Positions 17,967 through 34,757 of a stretch of DNA of 64,000 nt are shown in pieces (the first letter of the stretch is position 1; each line of letters begins with the position of its first letter). The notes under the pieces are model-generated. The model was not told the DNA's origin, made no database searches, and saw only the letters and a program-made list of their open reading frames with translations. This DNA is from Escherichia coli (GTDB lineage: Bacteria > Pseudomonadota > Gammaproteobacteria > Enterobacterales > Enterobacteriaceae), in the NCBI RefSeq assembly GCF_003334815.1, contig NZ_QOWO01000017.1; one strand, 5' to 3'. Position numbers and translations under genes: made by a program.

Positions 17967-18371
17967 TTAGATCAGGAAATCGTCGAGAGATTTACCTTCT
18001 GCCAGCGCCTGAGCAATTGGCTTCGGTGTACGGCCCTGACCGGTCCAGGTTTTAGTTTCACCGTTAACATCGGTGAATTTATATTTCGCCGGACGCGGCT
18101 GGCGTTTTTTACCAGCGCGTGGTGCAGCAGCAGAGCTATTACCCAATAACTCTTCCGGGTTAATTCCGTCAGCTTTCATCAGCTCCAGCCAGGTGCTAAT
18201 TTTTTCCTGGCGCTCTGCCAGTTCACGCTGCTGCTGTTCTTCTTCTTCACGTCTTTCTTTAGTGACAACCCTGAATTTTTCGAGCATTTCTTCAAGAACG
18301 TCAATGGAGAATTCGCGAGCCATCGCACGGAGGGTGCGAATGTTATTTAAACTTTGTAACATTACGGACAT
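17967..18371 (-). CDS. stpA: H-NS paralog, DNA-binding protein StpA
   Basis: 134 aa, [33 protein letters not shown]. Confidence 0.95.
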
Positions 18372-19039
18372 AATAAAGAAAACCTTTTAACGCCAAAACA
18401 AAAAAAGTATTTCGTCGCGTAGTGTAAGCGATCACTTATTATATTTCCACAAAATTTAATCTATTTACAGTCCTGCGCGAGATTATTTCAGCTGTTATTT
18501 TCTGAAACTCTCAGAATAATTTCAAGATTATATATTAGCCATTTTGATGAGTAATTTAGATTATTGGTGAACAGAGCGGCGCTCTCTGCTCGCTAATTCC
18601 GCAAGCCTGACAAAATCAAAGTGAATAAAAATGCAATATAACAGAATAAAAGAAAACATCCATCACTGGTGCTTTCTGCTGTTAATGTACATTGTCTGGC
18701 ATAAAAAATGCTGAAAATGACCCAGCTACTACATACACCGAATTCTCTACGCTTATAGCGTTACCTCACCCCCAAACTTTCATTAGTGATATTAAAGGTA
18801 AGGCCATATCTAATTGATTTAATTAAAAATAAATCATATCGGCATGTAAAAATCCACAATGTACAAAAAACGAGCCGTTACGGAATATTTTATCTACAAA
18901 AACTGACTAAATAAAAATTTTTCACTAATTGATTAGTCATAGCCAGCGATATACGCTATGCGAAAATGCAGATGGCAATGAGATCCACTGCTTTCATCTC
19001 CATTAACATCCCATTACGCTTTTATTAAGGAGCATTAGC

Positions 19040-19489
19040 ATGTTCTCACCGCAGTCACGCTTGCGTCATGCAGTTGCAGATACGTTCGCGATGGTTGTTT
19101 ACTGTTCTGTCGTGAACATGTGTATTGAAGTTTTCCTCTCCGGAATGAGCTTCGAACAGTCTTTTTATTCCAGATTGGTAGCGATTCCGGTGAACATCTT
19201 AATTGCATGGCCATACGGTATGTACCGTGATCTGTTTATGCGCGCGGCACGCAAAGTTAGCCCGTCGGGCTGGATAAAAAATCTGGCGGATATCCTGGCT
19301 TATGTGACGTTCCAGTCACCGGTGTATGTGGCGATCTTGTTAGTGGTGGGCGCAGACTGGCATCAGATTATGGCGGCGGTCAGTTCAAACATCGTTGTTT
19401 CGATGTTGATGGGGGCGGTTTATGGCTACTTCCTCGATTATTGCCGCCGACTGTTTAAAGTCAGCCGTTACCAGCAGGTAAAAGCCTGA
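19040..19489 (+). CDS. alaE: L-alanine exporter
   Basis: 149 aa membrane protein; synteny. Confidence 0.85.
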
Positions 19490-20351: not shown

Positions 20352-20382
20352 TGCAAAAATGATAATAAATACGCGTCTTTGA

Positions 20383-20412
20383 CCCCGAAGCCTGTCTTCG
20401 GGGTTTCTTTTT
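20383..20412 (+). terminator. Rho-independent terminator after ygaM
   Basis: Stem CCCCGAAG/CTTCGGGG followed by TTTCTTTTT. Confidence 0.65.
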
Positions 20413-20598
20413 GCCTGGTGAATCACAAAAATCCCCCTACCCCGTCACGCTCATATCCAGGGTAATTTCGACCACTATTTGCTATATATTGTGTGGTTGA
20501 ATCTTTTTTCAACTACATCTAGTATCTCTGTATCAACAGAGAGACAACCCGACGCGTATCATCGCGCCGTATCTTCATTTTAAACGGAAATACGAATC

Positions 20599-27007: not shown

Positions 27008-28000
27008 ATGCGACATAGCGTACTTTTTGCGACAGCGTTTGCCACGCTTATCTCTACACAAACTTTTGCTGCCGATCTGCCGGGCAAAGGCATTACTGTT
27101 AATCCAGTTCAGAGCACCATCACTGAAGAAACCTTCCAGACGCTGCTGGTCAGTCGTGCGCTGGAGAAATTAGGTTATACCGTCAACAAACCCAGCGAAG
27201 TAGATTACAACGTTGGCTACACCTCGCTTGCTTCCGGCGATGCAACCTTCACCGCCGTGAACTGGACGCCACTGCATGACAACATGTACGAAGCTGCCGG
27301 TGGCGATAAGAAATTTTATCGTGAAGGGGTATTTGTTAACGGCGCGGCACAGGGTTACCTGATCGATAAGAAAACCGCCGACCAGTACAAAATCACCAAC
27401 ATCGCACAACTGAAAGATCCGAAGATCGCCAAACTGTTCGATACCAACGGCGACGGAAAAGCGGATTTAACCGGTTGTAACCCTGGCTGGGGCTGCGAAG
27501 GTGCGATCAACCACCAGCTTGCCGCGTATGAACTGACCAACACCGTGACGCATAATCAGGGGAACTACGCAGCGATGATGGCCGACACCATCAGTCGCTA
27601 CAAAGAGGGCAAACCGGTGTTTTATTACACCTGGACGCCGTACTGGGTGAGTAACGAACTGAAGCCGGGCAAAGATGTCGTCTGGTTGCAGGTGCCGTTC
27701 TCCGCACTGCCGGGCGATAAAAACGCCGATACCAAACTGCCGAATGGTGCGAATTATGGCTTCCCGGTCAGCACCATGCATATCGTTGCCAACAAAGCCT
27801 GGGCCGAGAAAAACCCGGCAGCAGCGAAACTGTTTGCCATTATGCAGTTGCCAGTGGCAGATATTAACGCCCAGAACGCCATTATGCATGACGGCAAAGC
27901 CTCAGAAGGCGATATTCAGGGACACGTTGATGGTTGGATCAAAGCCCACCAGCAGCAGTTCGATGGCTGGGTGAATGAGGCGCTGGCAGCGCAGAAGTAA
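27008..28000 (+). CDS. proX: Glycine betaine-binding periplasmic protein
   Basis: N-terminus [21 protein letters not shown] (signal peptide), 330 aa. Confidence 0.95.
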
Positions 28001-34651: not shown

Positions 34652-34678
34652 GAACTCTTTCTTCCCAGGCGAGTCTGA
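34652..34678 (+). promoter_or_regulatory. Sigma-E-type promoter of micA
   Basis: -35 GAACTC (34652-34657), 16-nt spacer, -10 TCTGA (34674-34678), start at about 34685. Confidence 0.7.
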
Positions 34679-34684
34679 GTATAT

Positions 34685-34757
34685 GAAAGACGCGCATTTG
34701 TTATCATCATCCCTGAATTCAGAGATGAAATTTTGGCCACTCACGAGTGGCCTTTTT
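34685..34757 (+). ncRNA. micA: Hfq-dependent sRNA MicA (SraD) with intrinsic terminator
   Basis: GAAAGACGCGCATTTGTTATCATCATCCCTGAATTCAGAGATGAAATTTTGGCCACTCACGAGTGGCCTTTTT matches remembered MicA; located between luxS and gshA on the opposite strand. Confidence 0.85.

Follow-up and report, generated by a model that had tools for sequence, protein, structure and literature searches.

The genes stpA and alaE of Escherichia coli are transcribed divergently from either side of a long, AT-rich stretch of DNA, and the question is whether this stretch serves the control of the two genes, conceals a gene of its own, or is a remnant of acquired DNA. A sequence-only reading of the locus had favored a regulatory region bound by nucleoid proteins, and had allowed for an unannotated small RNA or small open reading frame (ORF). 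We determined that the stpA-alaE gap is a regulatory region that has already been recognized and studied; the regulatory reading is supported, whereas the hidden-gene idea is not. With a probability of roughly 85%, we consider it to be a composite divergent control region, consisting of two promoter-proximal conserved blocks and an AT-rich unconstrained spacer.

In the literature, the locus already serves as a model for double Lrp peaks, DNA bridging, and cross-regulation between H-NS and StpA. To this we add a base-level map of conservation of the gap across the Enterobacteriaceae, plausible core promoter positions for both stpA and alaE, and evidence against a missed gene in the remaining half of the gap, which behaves as a near-neutral spacer. 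The conservation map could guide the design of promoter deletions and reporter fusions at stpA-alaE.

Composition and setting of the intergenic region

All positions refer to the window, meaning the whole stretch of 64,000 nucleotides that was analyzed. It is 100% identical to E. coli K-12 MG1655, and a window position is converted to NC_000913.3 by adding 2,780,124. The sequence-only reading had described about 670 bp of AT-rich DNA between the divergent genes, and this was borne out by the measured spacing of 668 bp (Table 1). The GC content of 33.8% compares with a window mean of 50.8% and lies within the lowest 2% of 668-bp segments across the 64 kb scanned, the only stretch of lower GC being the horizontally acquired ypjB-ygaQ region at 3.2-8.2 kb. 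Among the six annotated divergent gaps in the first 49 kb, that between stpA and alaE is the longest, the others measuring 68, 151, 182, 255, and 559 bp. It was noted that the MG1655 RefSeq record annotates zero features within the gap. Of 5426 complete E. coli genomes, 5420 carry the gap, each in one copy.

Several further observations concern this setting. The lowest-GC stretch, at window positions 3200-8200 (29-37% GC), contains ypjB, ypjC, the tRNA gene ileY, and the ygaQ pseudogene, and the 559-bp divergent gap found there is likewise marked for H-NS in the SELEX table (PMC3946193). In one of the 5420 genomes, E. coli 2017-02-1CC (L002 2089-2786), an IS1B lies inside the stpA-alaE gap and lengthens it to 1444 bp. 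In the E. coli genome H30, the match covers just the first 342 bp of the gap.

Table 1. Features of the stpA-alaE region in window coordinates. Hexamers are putative positions.
Feature	Position	Strand	Remarks
stpA coding sequence, left flank	17967-18371	-	
stpA-alaE intergenic region, whole	18372-19039	none	668 bp, 33.8% GC
Conserved stpA-proximal block	18372-18470	-	leader of ~43 nt and core promoter
Putative stpA -10 hexamer TACACT	18421-18426	-	from conservation
Putative stpA -35 hexamer TGGAAA	18444-18449	-	plus-strand TTTCCA conserved; 17-bp spacer to the -10
Variable AT-rich spacer	18471-18800	none	gap-rich cross-genus alignment
GC-rich palindrome AGAGCGGCGCTCT	18573-18585		within GC-rich islet ~18572-18612
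16-codon mechanical ORF MLKMTQLLHTPNSLRL	18709-18759	+	judged a non-gene
Conserved alaE upstream regulatory block	18801-18928	+	from conservation
alaE upstream box ATTGATTTA	18812-18820		
alaE upstream box GGAATATTTTATCTACAAAAAC	18882-18903		other genera have ATTTTATCGAC
alaE upstream box AAATAAAAATTTTTCACTAA	18910-18929		
Putative alaE -35 hexamer TTGATT	18929-18934	+	TTG invariant
Putative alaE -10 hexamer TACGCT	18952-18957	+	T1, A2, and T6 invariant; 17-bp spacer
20-codon mechanical ORF in the alaE leader	18966-19028	+	judged a non-gene
alaE Shine-Dalgarno AGGAG	19028-19032	+	invariant in 23/23 representative species aligned
alaE coding sequence, right flank	19040-19489	+	

Conserved blocks at both ends and a near-neutral spacer between them

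A scan for AlaE with one genome per species yielded 80 loci, and stpA was found divergently upstream of alaE in 57 of them, all within the Enterobacteriaceae. Across these 57 loci, the gap ranges from 475 to 789 bp (median 557) and from 31 to 43% GC. Because it is long and AT-rich in every one of them, the long AT-rich gap is a conserved property of the locus. The sequence itself is conserved in a bipartite manner, with approximately 100 bp next to stpA (18372-18470) and approximately 240 bp next to alaE (~18800-19039) retained across the 57 loci, and a central portion of about 330 bp that is rich in indels and poorly conserved between genera. The alaE-proximal block was also kept where stpA does not adjoin alaE, namely in 22 loci (from Kosakonia, Silvania, Superficieibacter, and others), which indicates that this block belongs to alaE. 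It was noted that the 778-bp gap of Citrobacter amalonaticus (L011) is lengthened by a GC-rich insert of about 130 bp (…GGCCCCTGAGGGGCGAAGCCCAGGGATGGAGCGGG…) in the alaE leader, downstream of the promoter and ahead of the ribosome-binding site; the insert has the look of a small repetitive or mobile element.

The stpA-proximal block differs from E. coli by only 3-8% within Escherichia. It contains a candidate -10 hexamer in which the T, the A, and the final T are kept across genera, and from the position of this hexamer transcription of stpA is predicted to start near 18413-18415 on the minus strand. As a separate observation on stpA transcripts, an abundant Term-seq 3' end lies inside the stpA coding sequence at window position 18119 (MG1655 2,798,243, minus strand), where it is classed as internal; the primary stpA terminator in the same list is at 2,798,048.

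The alaE-proximal block combines an upstream portion containing three conserved boxes with a candidate core promoter and a leader. Two sets of direct repeats were found in it, namely CTAATTGATT in two copies 115 bp apart and AT(G/C)TACAAAAA in two copies 33 bp apart. In genera other than that of E. coli, the reverse complement of ATTTTATCGAC fits the H-NS motif TCGATAAATT at 9 of 10 positions. The assignment of individual boxes to Lrp or to H-NS is putative. Ihara reportedly found in 2017 that induction of alaE needs no more than 240 nt of upstream DNA, and the Lrp footprints in that work are said to run from -161 to -83 upstream of alaE, which would match the conserved block. The predicted alaE start, derived from the candidate -10, falls near 18963-18965 on the plus strand and would give a leader of about 75 nt. 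An alternative pair of promoters, at 18850-18822 (minus strand) and 18786-18814 (plus strand), was proposed from the consensus alone by the authors of the SELEX study (PMC3946193).

We also considered the alaE leader as a riboswitch or other structured cis-regulatory element, and this candidate was rejected. A conserved structure with covariation was sought in the leader by RNAalifold across 19 species and was not found; the prediction comprised just a 5-pair helix joining the ribosome-binding site and the start codon (-2.85 kcal/mol, zero compensatory changes), and the single-sequence fold z-score of the leader was -0.8. Within the alaE coding sequence, AGTCACGCTTGCGTCATG at 19053-19070 (codons 5-11) coincides with a PhoB ChIP-seq site centered on MG1655 2,799,166 (PMC10294691), in a study whose subject is transcriptionally inert intragenic PhoB sites.

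The rate at which the central spacer changes was examined within Escherichia by comparing E. coli with E. albertii, E. whittamii, and two further lineages. The spacer diverges from E. coli at 43-47% of aligned sites, and the fourfold degenerate sites of six flanking genes diverge by 27-34% in the same comparison. In the closest relative (L004), the corresponding values were 12% for the spacer and 14.5% for fourfold degenerate sites. The neighboring divergent gaps yqaE-ygaV and ygaC-ygaM diverge by 5-12%. The spacer therefore evolves at approximately the neutral rate or somewhat faster, a rate incompatible with a conserved gene for either an RNA or a protein. Its alignment within Escherichia contains only 3-5 gap columns, and the whole gap stays at 661-669 bp despite about 45% substitution. 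Such a near-constant length would fit selection, not on sequence, but on distance or looping geometry between an Lrp/H-NS complex at the alaE-proximal block and the stpA promoter, which may be at work here. As a description of the central 330 bp, a spacer constrained in its length and free in its sequence is nonetheless an unlikely reading.

Local features of the spacer were few. Some short islands are conserved only within Escherichia, including CATAAAAAATGCTGAA (18700-18715) and ATTCTCTAC (18742-18750). The GC-rich palindrome (Table 1), which overlaps a weak, below-threshold Rfam match, was seen only in E. coli and L004. AA/TT periodicity at 10-11 bp in the gap did not rise above that of shuffled sequences, so that intrinsic curvature is not established for this DNA; of the 13 periods examined, 8.0 bp showed a lone peak, which was disregarded.

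Occupancy by Lrp and H-NS and a proposed scheme of control

Published data place both Lrp and H-NS on this DNA. The stpA-alaE spacer is marked "HNS" in the SELEX-chip table of Shimada et al. 2014 (PMC3946193), and stpA-alaE serves as an example locus for Lrp in Ziegler et al. 2023 (PMC10127797). In the latter study, two strong Lrp ChIP-seq peaks occur at the alaE promoter in minimal medium, and one of them persists in leucine medium, where it accompanies strong activation of alaE. Deletion of a distal Lrp peak inside ygaP lowered the activation of stpA by Lrp more than 5-fold, and atomic force microscopy (AFM) showed that Lrp bridges the stpA-alaE fragment and that leucine abolishes this bridging (PMC10127797). 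According to a summary in PMC4668568, stpA depends on Lrp in minimal medium and is silenced by H-NS, and a passage of PMC6801825 that cites Ihara 2017 describes alaE as activated via Lrp by L-alanine and L-leucine. The H-NS SELEX site (PMC3946193) together with the Lrp peaks and bridging (PMC10127797) upholds the earlier description of the gap as a regulatory region bound by nucleoid proteins. The Lrp peak that is kept in leucine medium (PMC10127797) probably lies on the conserved block upstream of alaE.

At 33.8% GC, with orthologous gaps at 31-43%, the region has the AT-richness of DNA bound by H-NS and StpA. Scans for individual binding motifs remained at about the level of chance and did not locate binding sites. 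The Lrp consensus YAGHAWATTWTDCTR gave zero matches in the gap at up to 2 mismatches; at 3 mismatches it gave three, compared with about one expected from the window-wide density, which is approximately chance level, and its window-wide count barely exceeded that of shuffled sequences. The H-NS motif TCGATAAATT had a single match with 2 mismatches in the E. coli gap, at 18887-18896, which is likewise at chance level.

We propose the following scheme for how the region would operate. The 80-100 bp next to stpA would carry its core promoter together with a ~43-nt leader. The roughly 240 bp next to alaE would hold a weak, activator-dependent core promoter, an unstructured leader of 75 nt, and about 130 bp of conserved boxes on which Lrp would assemble. 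The remaining 330 bp or so may act as a landing platform for filaments of H-NS and StpA and as flexible DNA between the promoters, or as a loop. H-NS, and StpA itself, would coat the AT-rich DNA and thereby silence stpA. Lrp bound in the gap would activate alaE when leucine or alanine is present, and in minimal medium a higher-order Lrp complex would bridge a distance of more than 1 kb to the second Lrp site within ygaP. This bridging would be required for full activation of stpA.

The region was compared with known systems. Like it, the ycgB-dadAX gap lies between divergent promoters and contains a strong Lrp peak, with another at least 1 kb away, and both loci show leucine-sensitive bridging that affects expression (PMC10127797). 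The stpA-alaE gap is not separate from the system described there, since the window holds that paper's very locus. With AT-rich promoters silenced by H-NS and StpA, such as proU/proV in the same window and bgl, the region, at 34% GC, shares its AT-richness; an H-NS SELEX site is reported for it (PMC3946193), and stpA is likewise reported as silenced by H-NS (PMC4668568). It differs from these promoters in being a core-genome locus that was not horizontally acquired and in that phased A-tract curvature was not detected in the gap. A further difference is that the silenced gene stpA is itself an H-NS paralogue, which creates a cross-regulatory and autoregulatory loop. The small RNA gene micA, in the luxS/gshA gap of the same window (34678-34750), likewise lies between protein-coding genes. 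However, micA is annotated, whereas the stpA-alaE gap has no Rfam match, conserved terminator, Term-seq 3' end, or central conservation.

Alternative readings of the spacer and signals in neighboring genes

Being AT-rich and variable between lineages, the spacer could be taken for decayed horizontally acquired DNA, such as a dead gene or mobile element that persists by chance and has no regulatory role. Its near-neutral evolution agrees with this, as does the tolerance of the gap for inserts, with IS1 in one E. coli strain and about 130 bp in C. amalonaticus. However, the gap is at least 475 bp in 57 of 57 loci and holds its length within Escherichia despite heavy substitution, the spacer is single-copy in E. 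coli, and its occupancy by H-NS and Lrp is documented (PMC3946193, PMC10127797). Similarity of the spacer to plasmids or phages was not found beyond mislabelled chromosomal records: the plasmid matches are chromosomes of 4.8-4.9 Mb, and the sole phage match is an unannotated fragment of 1.7 kb. The genera also share no common long ORF. The one that recurs, a minus-strand frame (…DYISALK.ATSYKFLF…) in Klebsiella, Enterobacter, and Leclercia, was rejected as the reverse frame of conserved alaE promoter DNA and is closed by a stop in E. coli. We consider an origin as decayed DNA very improbable.

An unannotated small RNA is also very unlikely. One candidate would be a minus-strand transcript of about 110 nt running from the promoter predicted by the SELEX authors at 18850-18822 (PMC3946193) to a hairpin followed by a T-run at 18726-18710, possibly silenced by H-NS under laboratory conditions, which could mask its expression. 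Conservation of CATAAAAAATGCTGAA within Escherichia would suit such a transcript. This hairpin is the sole terminator-like structure in the gap and a weak one; its left arm is not conserved even in E. albertii, and the surrounding DNA evolves at or above the synonymous rate. The spacer folds no more stably than shuffled sequences on either strand (z-scores of -0.4 and -0.7). The sequence-only reading had recognized no RNA gene, and we agree: Rfam searches of the gap at a permissive E-value gave sub-threshold noise only, the best matches scoring 16-18 bits against gathering scores of 53-100. In the curated Term-seq data of Adams et al. 2021, covering wild type under three laboratory conditions, no 3' ends fall in the gap, and the list jumps from 2,798,243 inside stpA to 2,800,533. 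A search of full-text literature turned up no small RNA at this locus; the Lrp-dependent small RNA NsrP was considered and discarded, as it maps to a pathogen-specific island elsewhere. The suggestion of a hidden small RNA thus finds no backing in Rfam matches, folding, 3' ends, or conservation of the spacer center. Judged by the refuting condition set in the sequence-only reading, the hidden-gene idea fails within the reach of these data, with conserved blocks present at the promoter-proximal ends only and Term-seq 3' ends absent from the gap.

The earlier statement that the gap contains no ORF holds above 42 codons and fails below, as the gap contains, in whole or in part, nine mechanical ORFs of 20-42 codons. 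A small protein or leader peptide could be encoded at 18709-18759, in a hydrophobic 27-codon frame at 18631-18714, or at 18966-19028, and we judge this very improbable. The 16-codon ORF at 18709 has an ATG and an open frame of 16-29 codons in 6 of 6 Escherichia sequences, which also retain ML(K/N) and P(N/D/Y)SL(R/H)(L/F). However, its interior peptide is unconserved, a Shine-Dalgarno sequence is missing, and Salmonella has TTG or CTG in place of the ATG; at a stop frequency of about 0.07 per codon, we estimate that, among the conserved ATGs, a 16-codon frame left open in three independent lineages would be expected by chance. The 20-codon ORF in the alaE leader would start 2-3 nt from the predicted alaE start site, its stop adjoins AGGAG in a geometry compatible with translational coupling, and it is conserved in E. 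albertii. Yet in E. whittamii and E1V33 a stop leaves just 5 codons of it, and the ATG is missing from the other genera. The 27-codon ORF was rejected by comparative evidence. In the small-ORF supplement of the ribosome-profiling study by Stringer et al. 2021, no entry was found under stpA, under alaE, or at coordinates 27980-27995, and the MG1655 RefSeq record has no gene here. The possible small ORF of the sequence-only reading is accordingly not supported, with no conserved peptide and no place in that supplement. Weaker still than the reading of a length-constrained spacer is the possibility that an Escherichia-specific transcript or micro-ORF around 18700-18760, silenced by H-NS, may be expressed only under special conditions.

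Beyond the composite control region, a few signals were noted in the adjoining genes. The multi-species alignment has a gap of 112-148 columns in the ygaM-nrdH intergenic region (20352-20598), and in other Escherichia species its register is lost beyond this point through nrdHIE, which points to an insertion, deletion, or rearrangement ahead of nrdH, or else to a fault of the alignment. Orphan Term-seq 3' ends occur near ygaM-nrdH on both strands, at 2,800,533 and 2,800,553. Downstream of alaE and antisense to ygaC, a region of Rho-dependent termination is listed at window position ~19581 (MG1655 2,799,705, plus strand), which suggests termination of alaE transcripts by Rho within ygaC, the convergent gene.
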